Virus genome (UHGV): UHGV-0173177
Reading direction: 5' to 3' (one strand)
DNA: 44,360 nucleotides
DNA from: a virus
Shown: positions 6,023-43,492 of the stretch, piece by piece
How positions within the stretch are numbered: the first letter of the stretch is position 1
Layout: each line of letters starts with the position of its first letter
Notes under the pieces: generated by a model
What the model saw: only the letters and a program-made list of their open reading frames with translations
What the model was told of the DNA's origin: nothing
Databases searched by the model: none
Program-made: the position numbers and the translations under genes

Positions 6023-6295
6023 TTGATTGCAATGGGCGTGATTAAAGAACCGCAGATGAAAGAAGCGACGGGGCCAGAATGCCCCGTTTCTCTTATCGAC
6101 GCGTTCGAGAAATACCGTGCCATTAAATTCCTACAGCGCGAAACAGATGATACTATCGTTATAATCCCGCGCGATGCGCTCAAATGGCAAGATTTGGTAG
6201 CGTTTCGTGATGTCGCCGGTTACGGCATAAGTTTGTTCGAGGCCGAGGTTATCATGGGCTTAGACGGAATATTTGAGGGCAGAGAAGATGGCTGA
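6023..6295 (+). CDS. tail assembly chaperone frameshift extension (gpT-like), probably expressed as a fusion with 5517-5933
   Basis: Frame is -1 relative to the upstream gene and open from 5909 (the frames overlap 5909-5930 around GGAAAAG); track start 6023 is a TTG with no good RBS; ends overlapping the tape measure start. Confidence 0.4.
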   Translation: MIAMGVIKEPQMKEATGPECPVSLIDAFEKYRAIKFLQRETDDTIVIIPRDALKWQDLVAFRDVAGYGISLFEAEVIMGLDGIFEGREDG

Positions 6296-8600
6296 TACGG
6301 CTTCCCTAATTGCCAGAGTAAAAACAGAAGGTGCTGACGTAGCTGCCAAACAGCTTGACGCTATGGCGTCGTCTGCAGACCGCGCGGATACCGCGGTAAA
6401 CAAGCTGACTCCGGACGTTAATAAAGTAAACTCCACCACGTCTAAAGCGGCCTCCGACGGTTTCGCTAAGTTCCGTAACGCCGCAGGGCAGGTTGGCTTC
6501 CAGGTGCAGGACATGGTGGTCCAGTTGCAATCCGGCACGTCTGCATTCGTCGCGATAGGGCAGCAAGGTTCGCAGCTTGCCGGTGCTTTCGGTCCAGGTG
6601 GCGCGGTGCTAGGTGCGGTAATAGCGCTAGCGTCGGCGGTTGGTGGCGTTCTTTACAAATCATTAACTGAGGCTGAGGGTAGCTCAAAAGACCTGGAAGC
6701 CGCACAGAAACAGTTAAAGGACACCTTCCAACAAACGGCATCTGGCTCTCTTGAATTGACAGATGGTCTTATCCAGCTTACCCAAATCAGCAGAGAAGCG
6801 GCGGAGACTCAGCTTGCTCTGGCTAAGGCTAACGCGGACCTTATTGCACAGCAAACAGCTAAAGCCGTTCGTGAGGACGCAGAGTCGTGGGAAACGTGGA
6901 AGGCCTCCACGACATCGGCGATCAGCCAGTATGATGCGCTGGTCTCTAAGGGCGCCGATGTAGGCGACACATTAGAAAAACTAGGCGGCACTTACGAGGG
7001 TAACATCGTAGGCGTCAACATGCTGGCGCAGAATATCGCGGAGCTTAGCAGTAAGTTCGGGGTTAACCGTGACCAGGCGCTGGAGATGATAGCGGCGCAG
7101 AGTGCGTTTAACAAAGAACCAACCGCCGAGAATGCCCGTCGTATCGCCGATGTGTTTACCGACTGGCTAGGTAATACAAAACAGTTGAACCCGGAACTTA
7201 TCCGCCTGACCGACAACGCCAACAAGAACGCCACGGCACTGGAGAACGCGGAGAAGTCAGCAAACGCGGCGGCAGAGGCCCAAAAGAATCTCGGTCGTAA
7301 CGTCAACTCGACCACGCAGAGGTTCCAGGAACAGAACGAAGCTATCGTCAAAAACCAGCAAATTGCCATCTTAAGTGACCGTGAGCGCGTCCGGGCGCAA
7401 GCTGAACTGGATAAGCAGGCGTTTGCTAAACGTGAAGCTGTCACCAAAGAACAGATAGCCGCGTATAACGCTGCCCGTGACGCGGAAGCACAGCAAGACA
7501 TCGCTCGCATCGACGCGACCGAAAAAGCGAAGGCAGACCGCGAGGCTAAATCGAACGAGAAACGTCTGGCGGCACAAGCCAAACGCGAAGAAACTGCAGC
7601 GCAACGCCAGAAGAAAGCCGCGGAAGATTTCCTCGCTACGGTCGACCGAACAACGGGGGATGAAATTTCTCGTATCACAGCGGCAGAAGAGCAGAAACTG
7701 GCGAAACTTGAAGAGTTCAACCGCGCCGGAACAATAAGTCAGCAGCAGTACGAAAACGCCAAAACGCAGATTATGCTCACCGCCGAGCAGGCCCGACAGG
7801 AAGAACTGGATAAGAAAAGAAAAGAAGCCCAGGAAAAGCAGCAGAAAGGTGACGACTTCATGGCTCAGATTATGGGCCAGAACGCCGCTGAGCTTGAGCT
7901 TCTCGACATCCAGGAACAGCAGAAACTGGCGGTCGCAGATAAGTACCGTGAGCAAGGGCTTATTAGTGAGAAGCAGTATCAGGCCGCGCTTAACGCCATC
8001 AACGAGCAATACGCAACCAAGCGTGCCGACGCAACGGCAACCGCCTTCGGTAACATGGCCTCAAACATCGGGTCTGCGTTGGGTGAGGCTTCTGGCGCGT
8101 ACAAGGCATTCGCTATCGTACAGGCCACCATAGCCACGTACACCGCAGCTATCGAGGCGTACAAGTCCACGGCGGCTATCCCCGTAGTCGGCCCGTTCCT
8201 GGCCCCTGTAGCCGCTGCCGCTGCCGTTGGGGCGGGTATGGCGCAGATTTCCGCTATCAGGTCCGCGCGTGAGCAGGGCGGTCAGTTGTCCGCAGGGCAG
8301 GCTTCCACCATCGCAGAACGTGGTAAACCAGAAGTTATCATGCCCGCTGGCGCATCGCGTGTTCGCACCGCACAGCAGATGAAGGAAATTATGGGCCAAA
8401 ACGGGTCTTCTTCCGGCCCATCTAATGTTACCATCGTAAATAACACATCGAGTCAGATTGGCAACGTATCCACTGAGCAAGATGATGAAGGCCGTTTGCG
8501 TATCATCATCGAAGAGCAAGTGGCGGCCTCTTTGCAGAACAGCAACAGTAAGATTAGCAAGGCTCGCAAGGCCACAAGAAACGCGCCGGGGTTCAAGTAA
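6288..8600 (+). CDS. tail tape measure protein
   Basis: About 770 aa, Ala/Gln/Glu/Lys-rich and helical, hydrophobic Gly/Ala-rich segment near the C-terminus; follows the chaperone pair; ATG 6288 overlaps the upstream stop. Confidence 0.8.
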   Translation: MADTASLIARVKTEGADVAAKQLDAMASSADRADTAVNKLTPDVNKVNSTTSKAASDGFAKFRNAAGQVGFQVQDMVVQLQSGTSAFVAIGQQGSQLAGAFGPGGAVLGAVIALASAVGGVLYKSLTEAEGSSKDLEAAQKQLKDTFQQTASGSLELTDGLIQLTQISREAAETQLALAKANADLIAQQTAKAVREDAESWETWKASTTSAISQYDALVSKGADVGDTLEKLGGTYEGNIVGVNMLAQNIAELSSKFGVNRDQALEMIAAQSAFNKEPTAENARRIADVFTDWLGNTKQLNPELIRLTDNANKNATALENAEKSANAAAEAQKNLGRNVNSTTQRFQEQNEAIVKNQQIAILSDRERVRAQAELDKQAFAKREAVTKEQIAAYNAARDAEAQQDIARIDATEKAKADREAKSNEKRLAAQAKREETAAQRQKKAAEDFLATVDRTTGDEISRITAAEEQKLAKLEEFNRAGTISQQQYENAKTQIMLTAEQARQEELDKKRKEAQEKQQKGDDFMAQIMGQNAAELELLDIQEQQKLAVADKYREQGLISEKQYQAALNAINEQYATKRADATATAFGNMASNIGSALGEASGAYKAFAIVQATIATYTAAIEAYKSTAAIPVVGPFLAPVAAAAAVGAGMAQISAIRSAREQGGQLSAGQASTIAERGKPEVIMPAGASRVRTAQQMKEIMGQNGSSSGPSNVTIVNNTSSQIGNVSTEQDDEGRLRIIIEEQVAASLQNSNSKISKARKATRNAPGFK

Positions 8601-15717: not shown

Positions 15718-15855
15718 TTACTCTTCTGATAACTTCTCCAGTACAAACGCCAGTTGCGCATTAGCGGCATATCTTTGCTGGCGTAGGCGTAGAACCTCCT
15801 CCTCGAGTTCCTTGATACGTTTTTGCAATGCTGGAATCGGGGCTATGATGTTCAT
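15718..15855 (-). CDS. small coiled-coil protein (45 aa)
   Basis: Hand-translated ORF MNIIAPIPALQKRIKELEEEVLRLRQQ...; ATGA overlap with the upstream TOPRIM gene; below the track cutoff. Confidence 0.3.
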   Translation of the reverse strand: MNIIAPIPALQKRIKELEEEVLRLRQQRYAANAQLAFVLEKLSEE

Positions 15856-16367
15856 CTGGTAAATTTCCTCGCAAGATACGTTATTTCTTCTTCACAAAGT
15901 TCATCGAGGTCGTTAGATACAAATCCTCTGGTGAATGTTTTGCTGAACTTTAAGCCCGCTTTATCATTGTCACCGGCGCACACCCATTCATACGGCAAAA
16001 GTGACATTTGCTGCCGTAAGTCAGCTGGTATGTTCGACCCCAATGCGCTAACTGCATTAAACCCGCAATTCATCAAAGCAACAGCTTTAAATATGCTTTC
16101 GGTAACAAATACCACCCCGCTACTTGGCAAATACTCAAGTCCCCATAAACACGGCCTTGTTGTTCGGGTAAAGTACCGCGCATCCTTTGGGTTCTTGCAG
16201 TTCTTTTCAGCATGTGGCTTGTAATGCTGGTACCCGCGTAGCTTACCGTCAAAACCCCACAGGTAAAACGTAGCTACTCCAGGGCCTAAGACTACACGTA
16301 AACGGTCCGCGTCAAAACCTCGTGACAGCAGATGCGCCTTAAGTAGTAACTCCTCGCCGTCCATCAT
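15852..16367 (-). CDS. TOPRIM-domain protein (primase-like)
   Basis: 171 aa with VFVTESIFKA (conserved Glu) and CAGDNDKAG (DxD), spaced as in TOPRIM folds. Confidence 0.5.
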   Translation of the reverse strand: MMDGEELLLKAHLLSRGFDADRLRVVLGPGVATFYLWGFDGKLRGYQHYKPHAEKNCKNPKDARYFTRTTRPCLWGLEYLPSSGVVFVTESIFKAVALMNCGFNAVSALGSNIPADLRQQMSLLPYEWVCAGDNDKAGLKFSKTFTRGFVSNDLDELCEEEITYLARKFTR

Positions 16368-17788
16368 TTCTTACCTCGTCTCTTCATGTAATTAAGCAAC
16401 TCTTCCTGTACCGATTTCTTCTCGTCCGTACGCGCGGCAACAACCTCATCCAGTGTGTCTTTAGCGACGATGTGATAGAGGAACACCGGGCGCTCGTGCC
16501 CCGCCTGCTTCTGGCGAACAGGGCCTATGCGCTCGACAACCTGCAAATAGTGTTCAAGGTTCCAGCCTTGTGAGATGAACGCCAGATGATGCCCGCCGTC
16601 CTGTAAATTCAAACCATGACCGGCTGACGCAGGGTGCACGCATAAAATCTCGATTTCACCACGGTTCCATGCTTCCATCTGCTTGTTCCCCTTAGCGCCT
16701 TTGGCGAACGCCTGTGCCTGTGGGAATCGCTTAAGGATACGCTCCAGTTCGTGTTTAAACTGATAGGCTACCAGCAACGGCTCACCCTGCAACTCCTCAA
16801 CAATCGACTCGAGCGCATCCAGTTTCGTGTCGTGCACTTTCTCCCAGTCTTTGGTCGCTTCGCCATCCGGCCCTGACACATACACGGCACCGGATGCAAT
16901 CTGCAAACATTTCGACGTCTTCGCCGCGGCGTTAGCCGCTTCGACTTCTCCGCTCTCCAGCTCAGCGAATAACTTCTCCTCCATATCGATGTACGCCTGA
17001 CGCGCTTTCTTCGGCAGGTCGATTTCAACCGGCACAATAATCGGCGCTTCACAACCGAACCACTCGGCAGGGTCGATGGTCAGGCTGATGTCTTTCATCT
17101 TCTGATGAATTTCATTATCTGCACCTGGTCGCGCATGATATTCACGCGCCATAGCCGACTTACCTTTCTGTACCGAGTTAAACCAGCGGTCTGTGAATGC
17201 CGTATACGAAGAGCCGAGGCGCTCGCCAGCGTCGATAAACCAGTTCTGACCCCACAAGTCTTTGAGGCCGTTTGGTGACGGTGTGCCAGTCAGGTTGATG
17301 AAACGCTTAACCTTTCCGAACGCAACCTTGCTGAGCGCCTTTGCCCGCTTGCTACCACCCGAACGGCTGCGGAACGATTTAAGCTTCGTGCTTTCATCGG
17401 CAACGATAACCGTAAAAGGCCAGTCGTCTTTGCCGTAGTAGTCAATTAGCCACTCGATAACTTCGTAGTTAGTGCACACCACGTTAGCATCTGACTCCAG
17501 CGCCGCGATGCGGCGCTTCTCCGAACCAGTTGCATCTACGACACGCAGACAAGGGAATTGCCATTTCTCTTGTTCAGCGGGCCACGTACCGGACGCAACA
17601 CGTAACGGGGCAAGGATTAACACGCGGTCCTCTTCCGTAAGCTGCCCGTTGCGGAACAGGCGGTTGAGCACCCACATAGTGGAGGAGGTTTTACCTCCCC
17701 CCATTCCGCACCAGATATTACAGCGCGGGTGTTGCAGCATGAACGAAGTCATGAGCTTCTGGTATTCGCGCCTTTGAAACTTACTCAT
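16364..17788 (-). CDS. SNF2/DEAD-like superfamily 2 helicase
   Basis: 474 aa; Walker A CGMGGGKTSS, DExx-type IVADESTKLK, C-terminal helicase-domain-like region. Confidence 0.7.
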   Translation of the reverse strand: MSKFQRREYQKLMTSFMLQHPRCNIWCGMGGGKTSSTMWVLNRLFRNGQLTEEDRVLILAPLRVASGTWPAEQEKWQFPCLRVVDATGSEKRRIAALESDANVVCTNYEVIEWLIDYYGKDDWPFTVIVADESTKLKSFRSRSGGSKRAKALSKVAFGKVKRFINLTGTPSPNGLKDLWGQNWFIDAGERLGSSYTAFTDRWFNSVQKGKSAMAREYHARPGADNEIHQKMKDISLTIDPAEWFGCEAPIIVPVEIDLPKKARQAYIDMEEKLFAELESGEVEAANAAAKTSKCLQIASGAVYVSGPDGEATKDWEKVHDTKLDALESIVEELQGEPLLVAYQFKHELERILKRFPQAQAFAKGAKGNKQMEAWNRGEIEILCVHPASAGHGLNLQDGGHHLAFISQGWNLEHYLQVVERIGPVRQKQAGHERPVFLYHIVAKDTLDEVVAARTDEKKSVQEELLNYMKRRGKK

Positions 17789-18734
17789 TTACCGCCCCCA
17801 TGAATGCCTTTATAAATTCAGCGGCTACTTGCGGGACGATGGCATTGCCATAACCGCGCAATCGTCCCACTCTGGCGGGTATCCCATTAGCCAGCGGGAA
17901 TGCGCCGGGTTCAACTGGCCTGAATTTTCCATCCCGGCATCCGAGCCAGTCAGTATCTGACCAGAAGCCGTGATGCGGATTGGTTGTGTTATTTTCAGAC
18001 CCTGCTCCGTCGAGTAGTCCAGCCTGTCGAATGTTCTGTCTTTTCCGTCCTTGCGAATAACTGTCTCTCCGCTCCCTCTGTAATCGTTCGCTGTTGGGGT
18101 CGGCCATGCCAAAAGGTATTGTGCGTGCGTCGCCAGATTGCAATTCGCATTCGGTCTGTTGAAGCGTTTTTCCGCGTAGGCTTGTGGGTCTTTCGCTCTG
18201 CTGTTGTTGTCGTCCGCAACCGCTGGCGTCGGCCAGGTTGTGCGCGCCGAAGAACAGTCTGTCGCGTTTGTGCGGTGCGCCGACGCTACAAGCTGGGAGT
18301 ACGGCAAACCCGACGGCGTAGTCTTCTCCTTCCAGGTGAGTTTGTAAATCGCACATCCACGATTTTGCAATTGCTGGCGCAACCTGCTCCCCAAAGAGGA
18401 CTGGAGGTCGGCACTCGCTGATAAGGTCGAGGAACACAGGTGCGAGGTGTCTCTGGTCGAACTGTCCGAGTTGCTTTCCCGCCGCGCTAAACGGTTGGCA
18501 AGGCGGGCTTCCCGTCCAGAGAGGCGCATCTTCCGGAACTCCCGCAAGTCTGAGCGCGAGAGGCCAGCCGCCGATACCAGCGAAAAAATGACACTGGGTG
18601 AACCCGTCAAGGTCTTCTGGCTTAACTTCGGTAATGCTTCTTTCATCTACAACTCCAAAAGGTATGTGACCCTGTTTTATCAACTCACGCAGCCACGCGG
18701 CTGCGCCTTTATCCCATTCATTGTAATAGTTCAT
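17781..18734 (-). CDS. DNA (cytosine-5)-methyltransferase
   Basis: Motif I FFAGIGG, motif IV SPPCQPFS, LFGEQV (ENV-like), RDRLFF, C-terminal GNAIVPQV, in the canonical order. Confidence 0.65.
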   Translation of the reverse strand: MNYYNEWDKGAAAWLRELIKQGHIPFGVVDERSITEVKPEDLDGFTQCHFFAGIGGWPLALRLAGVPEDAPLWTGSPPCQPFSAAGKQLGQFDQRHLAPVFLDLISECRPPVLFGEQVAPAIAKSWMCDLQTHLEGEDYAVGFAVLPACSVGAPHKRDRLFFGAHNLADASGCGRQQQQSERPTSLRGKTLQQTECELQSGDARTIPFGMADPNSERLQRERRDSYSQGRKRQNIRQAGLLDGAGSENNTTNPHHGFWSDTDWLGCRDGKFRPVEPGAFPLANGIPARVGRLRGYGNAIVPQVAAEFIKAFMGAVNE

Positions 18735-18922
18735 TTCGCCACCAGAACTAACTCTTTACGACCGAACGCCGTAACGTTACCGGTTACATCTTCGATAACC
18801 AGTTTACCGTTTGACTCGACGTACACCGTATCAACGGCAACAGGGTGGCGGGTCTTAACGCTGAAAATCATGTCGCCTGGTACGATGTCACGTGCTGGCT
18901 TGCGGTCATATTCGTGTTTCAT
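18731..18922 (-). CDS. hypothetical protein (63 aa)
   Basis: ORF with ATGA coupling to the methyltransferase gene; downstream of the promoter at 18956-18984. Confidence 0.4.
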   Translation of the reverse strand: MKHEYDRKPARDIVPGDMIFSVKTRHPVAVDTVYVESNGKLVIEDVTGNVTAFGRKELVLVAK

Positions 18923-18952
18923 TTCTCAATTCCTTATATTGTTGGTGTGTGA

Positions 18953-19237
18953 TTAACTATAATAGCTCGCTATTAGGTCGTCAACCTGTTTAAACGAACC
19001 AACGACAAAAACATTTGCACCACGTTTACGCATCCGCTCATGCTCGCGTAACTGGTGCGGGTCTGGCTTCGTGTTTTCGTCTTTTTTAACCTCGACGAAC
19101 CAGATGATGCCGCCGGGGAGAATTACCAGCAGGTCGGGAGCGCCGGAGCGCCCCTCGTAGGAAAGTTTACGAACGAGGCCCCCAATGGCCTCGAATCGCT
19201 CTTTTGCGTATTTCTGAATCTTGCCTTCCGGTGTCAT
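18953..19237 (-). CDS. VRR-NUC domain nuclease
   Basis: 94 aa; …GAPDLLVILPGGIIWFVEVKK… matches the PD-(D/E)XK core typical of VRR-NUC proteins. Confidence 0.6.
   Translation of the reverse strand: MTPEGKIQKYAKERFEAIGGLVRKLSYEGRSGAPDLLVILPGGIIWFVEVKKDENTKPDPHQLREHERMRKRGANVFVVGSFKQVDDLIASYYS
18956..18984 (-). promoter_or_regulatory. sigma70-like promoter (class 1: TTGACG-17-TATAGT) with AATAGCTCGCTATT palindrome in the spacer
   Basis: - strand reads TTGACG acctaatagcgagctat TATAGT; lies within the last codons of the VRR-NUC gene. Confidence 0.45.
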
Positions 19238-19396
19238 CAGTCCGTTACCTTACACAAAACGGCAACACCTAAAAACACGGCTACGATTACCATAATAAGG
19301 GTAAGCATTGTCATAATACACACCCCTCACGTTTCGTATGCTCAATCCCGCAGCGCGGACAGATTCGACAGTCTTCTTCGTAGAACCAGTAAATTT

Positions 19397-19528
19397 TCAT
19401 TCCAGCACCCACAGATAAATTGCGATGAGCATGCCTAATACGGCGACAGTCATGCCGTATTGACCCTCGTGACAGTAGACACCGGCGGCGAATCCCGCCA
19501 GTACCGCGATAATAAGTTTACTTAGCAT
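19397..19528 (-). CDS. small membrane peptide (43 aa); first of three overlapping tiny ORFs
   Basis: Hand-translated MLSKLIIAVLAGFAAGVYCHEGQYGMTVAVLGMLIAIYLWVLE with two hydrophobic segments; followed by 28-aa and 25-aa ORFs joined by ATGA overlaps. Confidence 0.25.
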   Translation of the reverse strand: MLSKLIIAVLAGFAAGVYCHEGQYGMTVAVLGMLIAIYLWVLE

Positions 19529-20213
19529 CTCTACATTCTCCTTCAGGCCACCTATTAGGGAAAGACGGTATATGTGAAACTTCTCTCGCCGCTTTTATTC
19601 TTTTAATGGCGGGACCTATCTCCGTAACCATTTCGATGAATGTAAACCGGTGTCCTCTGGTAAGATTACATGTCTGACAACAAGAAACGCAGTTAGATAC
19701 TATGTGTCCGCTTGTGTTATCAATGCGGTCTACCCCGACTTTTGTAGTGCTTCCGCAATAATGACACGGCTGTGATATCAGTTTAATAACACTTTCCAGT
19801 GTTAAATCGCACATAAGCCCTTTCCCTGAATCCGCTCTTTTGTACCCCAACAAAAGCGCGTACGCCCGCGTCCTTTGGTCCTTATTCACCAGTTCCCTGC
19901 GTTGCTTGTTGAGACACTCTCGGCAATCTTTCCGGATATGAGAGCCGTTGCTTTTATTTCCTTTCCGGAAGTTTTCCTCTGTTAAGGGTTTTATCTCTCC
20001 GCACTTTCTGCATTTAACAGGCTTCCCCGTGAAAACATACCAAGGGCTTTCTCGCCGTGATTTACCTTGTAATTTAAGTTTTTCGTCATACTTTTCCTTC
20101 CTGTTGGCGTTTACACACTCTTTACACCAGCTTTGCAGACCGAGGCGCGTTGACTTTGAAAAATACTCCGTAGTCGCGGGTTTATCTTCACCACATCTTG
20201 AACACTTTTTCAT
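19518..20213 (-). CDS. HNH homing-type endonuclease with zinc-ribbon repeats
   Basis: HNH core HYCGSTTKVGVDRIDNTSGHIVSNCVSCCQTCN plus two CxxC…C repeats; start trimmed to ATG 20213 with GGAG RBS; visibly AT-rich compared with neighbours. Confidence 0.6.
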   Translation of the reverse strand: MKKCSRCGEDKPATTEYFSKSTRLGLQSWCKECVNANRKEKYDEKLKLQGKSRRESPWYVFTGKPVKCRKCGEIKPLTEENFRKGNKSNGSHIRKDCRECLNKQRRELVNKDQRTRAYALLLGYKRADSGKGLMCDLTLESVIKLISQPCHYCGSTTKVGVDRIDNTSGHIVSNCVSCCQTCNLTRGHRFTFIEMVTEIGPAIKRIKAAREVSHIPSFPNRWPEGECRDAK

Positions 20214-20289
20214 TAGTAACTCCAAAAAAAATACCGACATAGTCATTATATCGGTATTTACATTTTCTACAGCGTATTTCCTAAATCTA

Positions 20290-22464
20290 CTACTTGGCGT
20301 ATCTGTACATTTCGCTGCCTTCTGCAACCAAAGGGAAGCCTTCTGCCCATTCCGGTAATTCGCACATCAACCGCTCAAGCTCTGCGACATTGTATTCCGG
20401 TAAATCTGGCGTCTCGCAGATAATCTCATCGTGTACGTGAAGTACAATCGGGTAGCCGTTTGCTTCTACGTTCAGCAGTGCATTAGCCAGCAAATCACGG
20501 CACAGCGCCTGAGTACAGTTTTCCACCAGTTTACCGGAGTAGGTGTACTGGAATCCCCACTGACGAGTTAACTGGTTTTCTCCCTGATACTTGATGCGCA
20601 CGTTAGTAGACACCTTTCCATCTTCGTCTGTCTCTTTCGACACGCTCAATCCGACGCCGGGGTAGGACATAACGCGGCCAGACGGCAACGTCATACGCAA
20701 CCACCAACCGGCGACCTTGTTGCCGTTGTTGTCCGTTTCTACGTTGCGCGAAAACTTAACACCCCGCGGCCCTGCAGTGAACTCTTTACCAGGATTGCGG
20801 ATGGCCGCCATAGCCGCGTCTTCAATATCGCGCCAGAATTGTACTATCGCCGGATTGGCCTCTCGGTACATGCGTTTCAGAGCGTCACATGTTCTCCATA
20901 CTTTCTTATCAAGTATATATGATGGTCGGTCATCCTTTTCACCAGGACGCGGTGGTCGCTTGGCTTCCTGAATACGCGCCCACTCGTAACCGCGTGCGGT
21001 AGCCGACCAAATATGGTCCGGGAAAGTTCCGTCTAAAGTGCGGGTCATATCGTTCAAATCAAGACCTAAGTTTTTAGCAAACGTGACGAAAGCACCGACA
21101 CCCCCCGCGTAGCCGAGGCCCAGAACCATTGCTTTGGCTATTTGTCTTTGGTCCTTTGTTACATCCTCATAAGCAACGTTGAACACCGTTGATGCGAGTT
21201 TCTTATACACATCAACCCCGTTTACAAATACTTCGATTAAATCGTCTTCGCCCGCCAGCCACGCAAGCCCACGGCCTTCAACGTTAGAGTAATCGGCGAC
21301 GACAAACTTGTGCCCAGCTTCCGGTATGATGCAGCTACGTACCGTCGATGCCGTTAGCTTGGCTACATCGAAACGGCGATGAGCGCGACCCTTAAGTAAC
21401 GCTGAAATTCCTTTATCCAGTTCATCATCGTGATAGTACCCGCGCGCCAGGTTCTGTGGCTGGAAGCCTTTACCTGCAAATCGTAACGTACGCTTTGCCC
21501 CGCCATACTGTATGCAACCACGGCGACGGTCGTCAGAAGAACGGCCCAACAGCAGTGGGTTATATTTAGTTGATGCAGTTGAAGCAGCCCCGAGGCGCAT
21601 TTCGATAATCGTACGCGCATCGTCCGGTAAATCATCATCTGCCAGCAGGTCATTCAGCGTCGACTTCTGCGCGTTGTGGATACGGTGCGCCGGTGCGAGT
21701 TCGCGAAGAATCGGAAGGAAGTCTTTACCAGTAAGAGAGCCGCCGTATTTGCGCTGGGCTTCTTCCTGTAACTGTGCCTTGTGCTTCTCCACGGCCTCGA
21801 TAGCGGCTTCCGCCAGTGCGACGTCAACCTTAAACCCGCGGTCGTTGATTAACTGGTCAAGTTCCAGTACACGGTCTTCGAACTCGGAGTTACCCCACCG
21901 CGGCAGCTTATGGAAGACTTCACGCATCGCAGTGATGTCGCTCACGGCGTACTTGATGAACAGCGCCCACTCGTCCGGGTGTGTTTCTGCGGTGTAGCGG
22001 CGGATTTTGTAATTCTTCGGTGTCGGTTTAGAGAAACGCTGAATCAGCGCCTTGCCGCGTTTATCTTTTGCATTGTCAGCATACACGCCAAGCACTTCAC
22101 ACAGCGCATCAAGTGAACCCGGCAGCGCGTGACGAAACGCCCAAATCATCGTATCAATGGTGTTGCTTACGGGAATATCAAAGCCCCAGCAGTGTTTCAT
22201 GATGAGCCTGTCGAACATTGAGCCGTTGTGCCACACCATCTTAATACGACTGTTCGGCTTAACCAGGCGGCGCAGTGCGCGGTGCAAATCACCCGGCATG
22301 TCGCTGCCGTCGGTGCAATCCCATACCCGCACAGGCTCGTCGTCAAAAGCATATGTGCAGATAAGCACTTCGGTAGTCGGGTGTTCGGCGTAAGCGTAGG
22401 AGCCGACTTTCTTTAAATCGATGCCGCTGTAGGTTTCAAAGTCTAGATAGAGTAATTCTGGCAT
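20290..22464 (-). CDS. family A DNA polymerase with 3'-5' exonuclease domain
   Basis: ~724 aa; N-terminal exonuclease motif LYLDFETYS; large polymerase-domain-like C-terminal region; track TTG start at 22494 lies in the upstream terminator, so start trimmed to ATG 22464. Confidence 0.8.
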   Translation of the reverse strand: MPELLYLDFETYSGIDLKKVGSYAYAEHPTTEVLICTYAFDDEPVRVWDCTDGSDMPGDLHRALRRLVKPNSRIKMVWHNGSMFDRLIMKHCWGFDIPVSNTIDTMIWAFRHALPGSLDALCEVLGVYADNAKDKRGKALIQRFSKPTPKNYKIRRYTAETHPDEWALFIKYAVSDITAMREVFHKLPRWGNSEFEDRVLELDQLINDRGFKVDVALAEAAIEAVEKHKAQLQEEAQRKYGGSLTGKDFLPILRELAPAHRIHNAQKSTLNDLLADDDLPDDARTIIEMRLGAASTASTKYNPLLLGRSSDDRRRGCIQYGGAKRTLRFAGKGFQPQNLARGYYHDDELDKGISALLKGRAHRRFDVAKLTASTVRSCIIPEAGHKFVVADYSNVEGRGLAWLAGEDDLIEVFVNGVDVYKKLASTVFNVAYEDVTKDQRQIAKAMVLGLGYAGGVGAFVTFAKNLGLDLNDMTRTLDGTFPDHIWSATARGYEWARIQEAKRPPRPGEKDDRPSYILDKKVWRTCDALKRMYREANPAIVQFWRDIEDAAMAAIRNPGKEFTAGPRGVKFSRNVETDNNGNKVAGWWLRMTLPSGRVMSYPGVGLSVSKETDEDGKVSTNVRIKYQGENQLTRQWGFQYTYSGKLVENCTQALCRDLLANALLNVEANGYPIVLHVHDEIICETPDLPEYNVAELERLMCELPEWAEGFPLVAEGSEMYRYAK

Positions 22465-22480
22465 GGTATTTTGACCCTTA

Positions 22481-22510
22481 GTAAAAAGGCCCAATGAAGG
22501 GCCTTAGTTA
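22481..22510 (-). terminator. intrinsic terminator (copy 3 of the reiterated module) after the SSB-like gene
   Basis: - strand reads AACTAAGGCCC-ttcatt-GGGCCTTTTTACT, sharing the AACTAAGGCCC…GGGCCTTTTT core with the terminators at 3191 and 15694. Confidence 0.6.
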
Positions 22511-41677: not shown

Positions 41678-42379
41678 ATGAATCGTTTTTTACGTTATCC
41701 GTTCCAGGAAGAAGCTGGAGCAGAAGATAAAGCTGGTGGCGGTGACGCACCAAAAATGTTCACCGCTGAAGAAGTTCAGGCGCTGATTGAGAAAGAAGTT
41801 GCCGGGCTTAAGGCAAATCAGGAAGCGTTGCTGGCGGAGAAGAAAGAAGCCGCTCGCAAAGCAAAAGAGGCCGAAGAACAACGGCAGCGCGCGCACCAGG
41901 AGGCGTTAAAGGCTGCTGGTAAGATGGACGAGTTCGAAAAAACGATTCGTAGCCAGTATGACCCGGTGTTAGCCGAGAAAGATGGTCGCATCTCCAAAAT
42001 GGCGGAGCGCATCCTCGGCAGCGAACGTAAAGCGGTGTTAGGCTCTTTTGCGGGTGACTTTATTACCCCGGAAGCAGCGGACATTCTTGCACCGTTCGTC
42101 AAGACTGAGTTCGAAGGTGATGATGTGGTTACTAAGTTTGTCGGCCCAGACGGCAACGTAATCACGACTGACCCGGAACAGTTCCGCAAATACCTGCGCG
42201 AACACAAAGCGTTTTCGCATTTGATTAAAGCAAATGCAGCTTCCGGCGGCGGGGCTTCCGGTAGCAAAGGCGGCGGGGCCGCACCAGCGTTTAAAGACAT
42301 GAGTGAAGCAGAGCGTTTAGCCCTGTATAAATCGAACCCTGCCGAATTTGAACGGCAACTTAAAGCCCTGAGGAAATAA
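41678..42379 (+). CDS. scaffolding protein (putative)
   Basis: ~230 aa, Ala/Glu/Lys-rich and helical, immediately upstream of the major capsid gene; track TTG start 41624 trimmed to ATG 41678. Confidence 0.5.
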   Translation: MNRFLRYPFQEEAGAEDKAGGGDAPKMFTAEEVQALIEKEVAGLKANQEALLAEKKEAARKAKEAEEQRQRAHQEALKAAGKMDEFEKTIRSQYDPVLAEKDGRISKMAERILGSERKAVLGSFAGDFITPEAADILAPFVKTEFEGDDVVTKFVGPDGNVITTDPEQFRKYLREHKAFSHLIKANAASGGGASGSKGGGAAPAFKDMSEAERLALYKSNPAEFERQLKALRK

Positions 42380-42381
42380 TA

Positions 42382-43431
42382 ATGGCAATTACCACTATCG
42401 GCGATATCGTAACTGGCAACATCCCGGTCCTGGCGTCTTACATGACCGAGGACCCGGTAGAAAAAACTGCGTTCTTCCAGTCCGGTATTCTGACCCCGAC
42501 TCCGCACGCTGCCGAGATTGCCCGCGGCCCGTCCAACGTCGCTAATATTCCGTTCTGGAAAGCGATTGACACTTCCATCGAGCCTAACTACTCGAACGAC
42601 GTATACCAGGACATCGCTACCCCGCGTAACGTGCAGACCGGCGAGATGATGGCGCGCGTTGCATACCTGAACGAAGGCTTTGGCCAGGCGGACCTGACCG
42701 TTGAACTGACCAGCCAGAACCCGCTGCAATCTGTGGCTTCTCGCCTGGATAACTTCTGGCAGCGTCAGGCACAACGCCGTCTGATTGCTACTGCGCTCGG
42801 TCTGTACAATGACAACGTAGCTGCTACCGACGAATACCATGAGCAGAACGACATGGTAATCGACGTGTCCTCTACTCTGGGCTTCGACGCTGGCGCGTTC
42901 ATCGACGCTACCCAGACTATGGGTGATGCACTGATGGGTAACGGTGGTGAAGTGCTGGGCGCTATCGCTATGCACAGCTTCGTATACGCGCAGGCGCGTA
43001 AGCAGCAGCTCATTGACTTCACCAGAGACGCCGACAACGACACCCTGTTTGCCACCTACCAGGGCTACCGTGTGATTGTTGACGACAGCATGACTGTAGT
43101 CGGTACCGGCAGCAGCCGTAAGTTCATCTCCATCATCTTCGGCAACGGCGCTATCGGTTACGGAGAAGGTAACCCGACCAATCCGCTGGCATATGAGCGC
43201 GAAGAGTCCCGCGGCAACGGCGGTGGCGTCGAAACCCTGTGGACACGTAAGACTTGGTTGCTGCACCCACTGGGCTACCGCTTCACCAGCGCGGAGATCA
43301 CCGGCAACGGCACCGAGACCGTCGCACGCTCCGCTTCCTGGCAGGACCTGGCGAACGCCTCCAACTGGAACCGTGTTGTTGGCCGTAAGCACGTACCGAT
43401 TGCCTTCCTGGTAACTGGTGTAGGGTCTTAA
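42382..43431 (+). CDS. major capsid protein
   Basis: 349-aa ORF with GAGGA RBS after the scaffold gene and before a strong terminator; assigned by gene order, size and context. Confidence 0.65.
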   Translation: MAITTIGDIVTGNIPVLASYMTEDPVEKTAFFQSGILTPTPHAAEIARGPSNVANIPFWKAIDTSIEPNYSNDVYQDIATPRNVQTGEMMARVAYLNEGFGQADLTVELTSQNPLQSVASRLDNFWQRQAQRRLIATALGLYNDNVAATDEYHEQNDMVIDVSSTLGFDAGAFIDATQTMGDALMGNGGEVLGAIAMHSFVYAQARKQQLIDFTRDADNDTLFATYQGYRVIVDDSMTVVGTGSSRKFISIIFGNGAIGYGEGNPTNPLAYEREESRGNGGGVETLWTRKTWLLHPLGYRFTSAEITGNGTETVARSASWQDLANASNWNRVVGRKHVPIAFLVTGVGS

Positions 43432-43446
43432 GGTTAAGATATAATC

Positions 43447-43471
43447 GAGAGGGACTTCGGTCCCTCTTTTC
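43447..43471 (+). terminator. intrinsic terminator after the major capsid gene
   Basis: GAGAGGGAC-ttcg-GTCCCTC followed by TTTT. Confidence 0.7.
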
Positions 43472-43492
43472 ATTTACTAAGAGGATTCCTCA

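Follow-up and report, generated by a model that had tools for sequence, protein, structure and literature searches.

The window, the virus genome UHGV-0173177 analysed over its whole length of 44,360 nucleotides (nt), carries on its minus strand a 954-nt gene for a C5 cytosine methyltransferase. The question raised by this locus is whether the gene encodes one protein or two. In the earlier note, its frame-0 open reading frame (ORF), here called alpha, was taken for the whole methylase. This is very unlikely to hold: a second ORF of 273 amino acids (aa), here called beta, was overlooked. Beta lies wholly inside alpha in the +1 frame and spans 86% of it, and the functional unit appears to be two nested genes. 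As judged from sequence comparison, the gene probably encodes two nested-frame proteins that jointly form one alpha/beta C5 DNA cytosine methyltransferase of the M.EcoHK31I type. Feature positions are given in Table 1.

Two reading frames in one methylase gene

Alpha is laid out as motifs II, I, IV, VI and VIII, followed by an unconstrained linker and a conserved C-terminus with motif X. The motifs previously listed as a complete set (FxGxGG, PCQ, RxR, GN) are readable in frame 0 as FAGIGG (18584-18567), PCQ (18503-18495), HKRDR (18272-18258) and GN (17849-17844), together with GEQV and GYGNAIVPQ. Alpha matches phrog_363 over its full length (2.5e-88). It matches Pfam family PF00145 with 59.7 bits (cut-off 22), only at aa 70-171 (profile positions 62-168 of 324), which covers motifs IV-VIII. 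The catalytic motifs PPCQPFS (IV), GEQV (VI, Glu kept) and HKRDR (VIII) align to M.HhaI residues 74-168, and the similarity of motifs IV-VIII to M.HhaI is significant (7.7e-11, family profile). FAGIGG (motif I, aa 51-56) aligns weakly to M.HhaI 2-32 (9.3 bits). The set is nevertheless not complete: neither a recognition domain nor motif IX is detectable in frame 0 after motif VIII, and the frame-0 protein is therefore probably unable to methylate DNA alone.

At the N-terminus of alpha, YYNEWDK (aa 3-9) resembles motif II of M.HhaI (residues 37-47) yet precedes FAGIGG, and FAGIGG with its helix (aa 35-66) resembles M.HhaI 2-33; both individual alignments are weak. The TIGR00675 match to alpha begins at profile position 25. 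The motif order appears to be locally permuted at aa 1-66 (18540-18734, minus strand).

Beta is composed of an unconstrained leader, a conserved core, two W-P-T-P cassettes and a motif-IX-like end. It matches phrog_1008, labelled 'DNA methyltransferase', at 3.7e-61, and no Pfam family. The conserved block after the leader reads S.SA.L..SL..RL....GS.IYKLTWK..TP.G....L.AS..RT., and the protein ends with ..SGQLNPAHSRWLMGYPPEW. Its ATG sits 88 nt inside alpha. Many distant lineages have AGGAG-N8 before a +1 ATG at alpha codon ~35, and this AGGAG-N8-ATG signal is built from the frame-0 codons Arg(AGG)-Ser(AGC)-Ile-x-Asp-Val. Such an internal Shine-Dalgarno (SD)-ATG signal indicates independent initiation rather than frameshifting. 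In K1ind genomes beta is annotated as ORF28, 'putative Mte8-like protein', inside ORF29.

Selection is frame-specific. Substitutions among about 25 close relatives were sorted, in an OLGenie-like way, according to what each changes in the two frames, with intervals from column bootstraps, and the counts were repeated on alignments guided by either frame. The ratio is dNN/dSN for frame 0 and dNN/dNS for the +1 frame (N, nonsynonymous; S, synonymous). At alpha codons 32-115, frame 0 is constrained (0.25, interval 0.18-0.35) and the +1 frame is neutral (0.94-0.95). At codons 116-141 the values are 0.7 for frame 0 and 0.43 for +1; at codons 142-162, which hold motif VIII, 0.18 and 0.68. Codons 163-254 give 0.60-0.79 in frame 0 and 0.29-0.34 (interval 0.21-0.44) in +1, and codons 255-274 give 0.15 and 0.7. 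Both frames are constrained at codons 275-299 (0.23-0.32 and 0.40-0.44). The flanks beyond the overlap, codons 2-28 and 301-316, serve as controls and show the pattern of a single coding frame. Constraint alternates by region; selection is thus relayed between the two frames along the gene.

Stop codons are avoided in both unconstrained stretches. When frame-0 codons are shuffled synonymously from alpha codon 38 to motif VI (53 distinct sequences), 72.8 stops are expected in the +1 frame of the beta leader and none is observed; the control +2 frame has 133 stops against 167 expected. When +1 codons are shuffled in the middle region (44 sequences), 143.4 frame-0 stops are expected in the alpha linker and again none is observed, with 226 against 223 expected in the control third frame. 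Both stretches being stop-free, translation apparently proceeds in the +1 frame from close to the 5' end and in frame 0 through the middle.

These data make it scarcely credible that the frame-0 protein is a self-sufficient monomeric methylase and the +1 ORF a non-functional by-product of composition. Frame 0 is indeed the longest ORF, passes PF00145 and is the only ORF annotated in many records. The +1 frame, however, is under purifying selection where frame 0 is not; it lacks stops against expectation, opens with a conserved start signal and encodes a protein conserved down to ~30% identity. In frame 0 the middle (aa ~163-254) is low-complexity, rich in R, Q, S and G, unalignable between lineages and modelled with very low confidence.

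Programmed frameshifting within a single polypeptide (frame 0 to motif VIII, +1 for recognition and motif IX, -1 back for motif X) is highly improbable as well. It would produce a canonical single-chain methylase and suit the motif order across the frames (I-VIII, IX-like, X), which is collinear with M.HhaI in a hand-made chimera. Yet an X XXY YYZ heptamer is present between the motif-IX-like element and motif X in none of 10 diverse loci, and no conserved +1 shift site follows motif VIII, where the sequence is variable. A double shift in one gene would be very inefficient. Frameshifting would also not demand a +1 frame open from codon ~30, a frame 0 open across the middle, or an internal SD-ATG.

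Proposed two-subunit enzyme and its distribution

In the proposed two-subunit enzyme, frame 0 would yield alpha, with an S-adenosylmethionine-binding and catalytic domain (motifs I, IV, VI, VIII), a spacer of ~90 aa and a C-terminus with motif X. The +1 frame, from its own GGAG-N6-ATG, would be translated into beta, with a leader of ~85 aa, a core, two W-P-T-P-x3-D cassettes of ~43 aa and LNPAHSRWLMGYPPEW. Each frame would have to stay open across the stretch where the other codes. Like the two chains of M.EcoHK31I, alpha and beta would associate to form the active enzyme, and the beta cassettes would determine the sites at which it methylates phage DNA. Methylation of the phage's own genome would be the natural consequence. 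Isolates of Kagunavirus are reported to be highly sensitive to the restriction-modification systems that were tried against them (PMC11990801), so any protection must be narrow in reach and confined to particular sites.

The beta family has 0-6 tandem W-x-T-P-x3-D cassettes of ~30-45 aa each. Cassette types recur in varied numbers and combinations, such as C-E-B, C-E-D-B, C-G-E-D-B and C-P-E-E-D-B. Beta of the window carries cassettes I-A and K1ind1-type phages carry A only, a difference of 43 aa or 129 nt. The W-P-T-P cassettes are proposed to be target-recognition modules shuffled among phages, and would act as the specificity modules of the enzyme.

The motif-IX-like element LNPAHSRWLMGYPPEW is conserved in all lineages. 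In the hand-made chimera it lines up collinearly with M.HhaI 270-288, KTRKLHPRECARVMGYPDS (motif IX), at a non-significant score. It resembles LHPRECARVMGYPDSY of M.HhaI and LTPRECARLMGFE of Dcm, all profile and pairwise tests being non-significant. In two loci whose recognition region is replaced (L024, L033), the +1 frame keeps the motif-IX-like SFHPIMARQIMGFPPEW and frame 0 loses most of CRDGKFRPVEPG.

Several points weigh against the two-subunit enzyme. The case is built on comparison of sequences, and M.EcoHK31I is likened by its described architecture, not by sequence. Profiles of beta, of a chimera of beta motif IX with alpha motif X, and of the alpha C-terminus have no significant match among PDB sequences and solved C5 methylases. 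Comparison with a Dcm alignment and profile by hhalign gives no significant match for motifs IX and X; the alignment of the alpha C-terminal GN to Dcm motif X is not significant, and the beta motif is instead placed opposite the segment that precedes Dcm motif IV, at 1% probability. Pfam searches with chimeras and fragments give no significant support for motifs IX and X, nor do Smith-Waterman alignments with shuffles (z about 1). The assignments of motifs IX and X are pattern-level only; given the absence of significant similarity, those of motif IX and the recognition domain rest on position, pattern and precedent. AlphaFold2 monomer models, made from alignments of close homologues, are poor. 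For beta the mean predicted local distance difference test score (pLDDT) is 49, with only aa ~80-125 confident; for alpha it is 40, with aa 170-299 below 35. The models thus lend no structural support. Nor does the two-subunit reading account for a beta start ~85 codons upstream of the constrained part.

A separate role for beta as a genuine protein outside the methylase (for example regulator, anti-defence or DNA-binding), with alpha acting alone or being inactive, is unlikely, though less so than the two alternatives above. Overprinted viral genes often carry unrelated accessory functions, and beta has no significant similarity to solved structures or Pfam families, both of which count for such a role. 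Beta nevertheless always co-occurs with alpha in the same nested geometry in very distant phages. Its constrained part occupies exactly the interval from alpha motif VIII to motif X, the expected place of a recognition domain and motif IX. Alpha itself shows no recognisable recognition domain, and the precedent of M.EcoHK31I favours a subunit role.

The distribution was judged from 64 viral-contig loci together with several phage regions that carry annotation. Of about 60 homologous loci, nearly all have a +1 frame that runs without a stop for 203-424 codons from a start at frame-0 codon 0-37, whereas the +2 frame is open for at most about 40-95 codons. The nested layout occurs in phages of both Proteobacteria and Acidobacteria, with Rhodobacter, Pseudomonas, Vibrio, Burkholderia and Xanthomonas among the hosts, and Tunturiibacter as the acidobacterial one. 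For a T4-like Krischvirus it was read from the frame offset of the match only. Beta has 6206 protein relatives in the database. A tblastn search with its last 176 residues retrieved 243 phage records, down to ~30% identity, and a whole-library search with the beta core retrieved 10,249 clusters at 50% identity (E<=1e-3). Most beta-core homologues begin matching at residue ~70-80 and hence carry the same leader. No beta-type domain fused in frame to the catalytic domain was found: among the ten longest of 150 listed representative matches, none has PF00145, two are fused to Dam or DUF2800/PD-(D/E)XK and eight are without a Pfam family. Burkholderia vB_CB2a and Tunturi_1 were considered as in-frame cases and rejected; the annotators had picked the +1 ORF.

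Some relatives (L028/L029, with an alpha of 478 aa, L054 and L048) have insertions between the end of beta and alpha motif X. In others (L030-L032) the beta frame continues beyond the alpha stop. In two viral contigs (L020 and L036), unlike all other loci, frame 0 ends after 82 codons; either a frameshift mutation in the alpha catalytic domain or an assembly error there may be the cause.

A tentative generalisation is that a very large phage family (>10,000 clusters at 50% identity) would consist of relay-coded methylases whose frames alternate selection over ~270 codons. The beta W-P-T-P cassettes would be independent, exchangeable modules, and specificity would be changed or multiplied by their gain, loss and shuffling while alpha merely stays open. 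Most annotations, giving alpha only or beta only, would then misdescribe the enzyme.

If the two-subunit enzyme is real, hundreds of phage genomes carry an annotated frame-0 'DNA cytosine methyltransferase' that is only half an enzyme. The half that sets specificity would come from an overlapping gene, which most gene callers drop or which goes under the name 'Mte8-like' or 'hypothetical'. Forecasts of phage methylomes and of how sensitive phages are to restriction and type IV systems would be affected, and so would the cloning of such methylases, since alpha would probably not work without its partner. A modular way of gaining new specificities would be suggested. As an example of long same-strand dual coding the locus is clean and testable: selection passes from one frame to the other several times, and the two stretches without constraint stay open only for the passage of translation.

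Gene neighbourhood

Positions 16000-19300 of the window are 91-94% identical to Kagunavirus coliphages (Guernseyvirinae; phiEc3, Golestan, K1ind phages). The locus is part of a run of overlapping replication genes on the minus strand, in the order family-A DNA polymerase, Cys-rich 269-aa ORF, VRR-NUC, 63-aa ORF, methylase, SNF2-type helicase and Toprim protein; the placement in a replication block made in the earlier note is borne out by these neighbours. So is the overlap of the C5 methyltransferase ORF with the start of an SF2/SNF2-like helicase gene: both ORFs are real and match Pfam, and the helicase ATG (17788-17786) starts 5 nt before the methylase stop TAA (17783-17781) in ATGAGTAA, an 8-nt overlap (17781-17788). 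The helicase ORF belongs to the SNF2 family by its match to SNF2-rel_dom PF00176 (48.8 bits, cut-off 24.9); Helicase_C PF00271 scores 21.4 bits, slightly below its cut-off of 23.5.

Coupled translation of methylase and helicase, as proposed before, is plausible from the 8-nt overlap and fits the chain of overlapping genes. A functional link is not implied, since the adjacency is not kept outside Guernseyvirinae, the subfamily of this phage, to which it is specific. In the Rhodobacter, Pseudomonas, Vibrio, Burkholderia and Xanthomonas phages the nested pair adjoins integrase, terminase or head genes.

Table 1. Features of the nested methylase locus and adjoining genes in the window
Feature	Position	Strand	Basis or remark
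Alpha, frame-0 ORF, 317 aa, C5 cytosine methyltransferase (954-nt gene)	17781..18734	-	ORF list, Pfam, PHROG, M.HhaI alignment
Alpha linker, aa 163-254, corresponding to the beta recognition region	17973..18248	-	frame 0 nearly neutral, kept open; +1 under purifying selection
Alpha conserved C-terminus, aa 255-317, GFW..DW..CRDGKFRPVEPG...ARVGRLRGYGNAIVPQVAAEFIKAFM	17784..17972	-	invariant columns; frame-0 dNN/dSN 0.15-0.32
Beta, nested +1 ORF, 273 aa, proposed subunit	17825..18646	-	ORF list, PHROG, tblastn, database relatives
Internal beta start: GGAG (18656-18653), 6-nt spacer, ATG (18646-18644)	18644..18656	-	right after +1-frame TAG
Beta leader, aa 1-86, overlapping alpha motifs I-VI	18389..18646	-	no +1 amino-acid constraint, stop-free
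Beta cassette 1, aa 138-180, WPTPAVADD..., 43 aa	18107..18235	-	missing from K1ind1-type relatives (129-nt insertion/deletion)
Beta cassette 2, aa 181-223, WPTPTANDYRGSGETVIRKDG...	17978..18106	-	commonest cassette type among close relatives
Motif-IX-like LNPAHSRWLMGYPPEW of beta, dual-coded with alpha ...EPGAFPLANGIPARV	17867..17914	-	both frames constrained
SNF2-type helicase ORF, 474 aa	16364..17788	-	ORF list, Pfam; ATG overlaps alpha stop codon
63-aa ORF upstream of methylase	18731..18922	-	its TGA overlaps alpha ATG (ATGA)
Family-A DNA polymerase	20290-22494

Other observations were made in the window. Four successive genes at 15852-18922 (minus strand), namely the 63-aa ORF, methylase, helicase and Toprim ORF, are linked by start/stop overlaps, that of the helicase and Toprim ORF being 4 nt (16364-16367). 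In the 269-aa Cys-rich ORF between the VRR-NUC and DNA polymerase genes (19518-20327, minus strand), CxxC pairs recur and an HNH-like VDRIDN...H...N...CN motif can be made out by eye at the C-terminus; the ORF has no Pfam match at E<=0.001 and may be a homing endonuclease. A 551-aa ORF in the structural block (41818-43473, minus strand), antisense to plus-strand ORFs of 251 aa and 349 aa and without a Pfam match, is probably a chance open frame. AT skew has its maximum of 0.38 at positions 7001-8000, within a 775-aa ORF (6273-8600). Near 29 kb, GC skew changes from -0.16 to +0.30, in keeping with the change between minus-strand and plus-strand gene blocks.

Comparison with known systems

Full-text literature searches found no paper in which this phage family is described as a methylase with two nested subunit genes. 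The two-subunit methyltransferase of an Stx phage (PMC10810198) was considered and is unrelated, being an MT-A70 enzyme with a separate upstream partner gene.

M.EcoHK31I (E. coli HK31, YGGCCR) is one of only two characterised two-polypeptide C5 methylases. Its alpha chain holds motifs I-VIII as well as X, its beta chain motif IX; activity needs both, and the N-terminal part of beta is partly dispensable, alternative internal Met starts being used (PMC2836561; PMC3404938). Its beta gene, like that of the phage, is wholly contained in the alpha gene and read in a different frame. The phage locus has the marks of a nested gene of this type, namely a second ORF inside the first, purifying selection, stop avoidance and an SD-ATG. 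It differs in four respects. The recognition domain of M.EcoHK31I is assigned to alpha, whereas selection in the phage places it in beta, the middle of phage alpha being a nearly neutral spacer; phage beta has an unconstrained leader of ~85 aa; it carries 0-6 shuffled cassettes; and the phage gene is an orphan, not half of a restriction-modification pair. If the two-subunit reading is true, an architecture known from a single bacterial enzyme is extended to a widespread phage family.

M.AquI (CYCGRG) is a C5 methylase naturally split within the variable region into two polypeptides (PMC3404938). It shares the two-polypeptide state with the enzyme proposed for the phage. Its split is serial, not nested, with motifs I-VIII in alpha and the rest of the variable region and motifs IX-X in beta, whereas motif X of the phage enzyme remains with alpha.

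Bacillus phages SPR, phi3T and rho11s have multispecific orphan C5 methylases with tandem recognition modules of ~40-50 aa that can be gained, lost or exchanged. These are single polypeptides in one frame, whereas the phage pair described here uses two frames. Unlike in M.HhaI and E. coli Dcm, the putative recognition domain and motif IX of the phage enzyme lie in another polypeptide than the catalytic motifs, the motif-II-like YYNEWD (aa 3-8) precedes motif I, and motif VI is GEQV, not ENV. The nested relay-coded pair most likely encodes an enzyme of the M.EcoHK31I type; it is widespread in phages and mostly mis-annotated.

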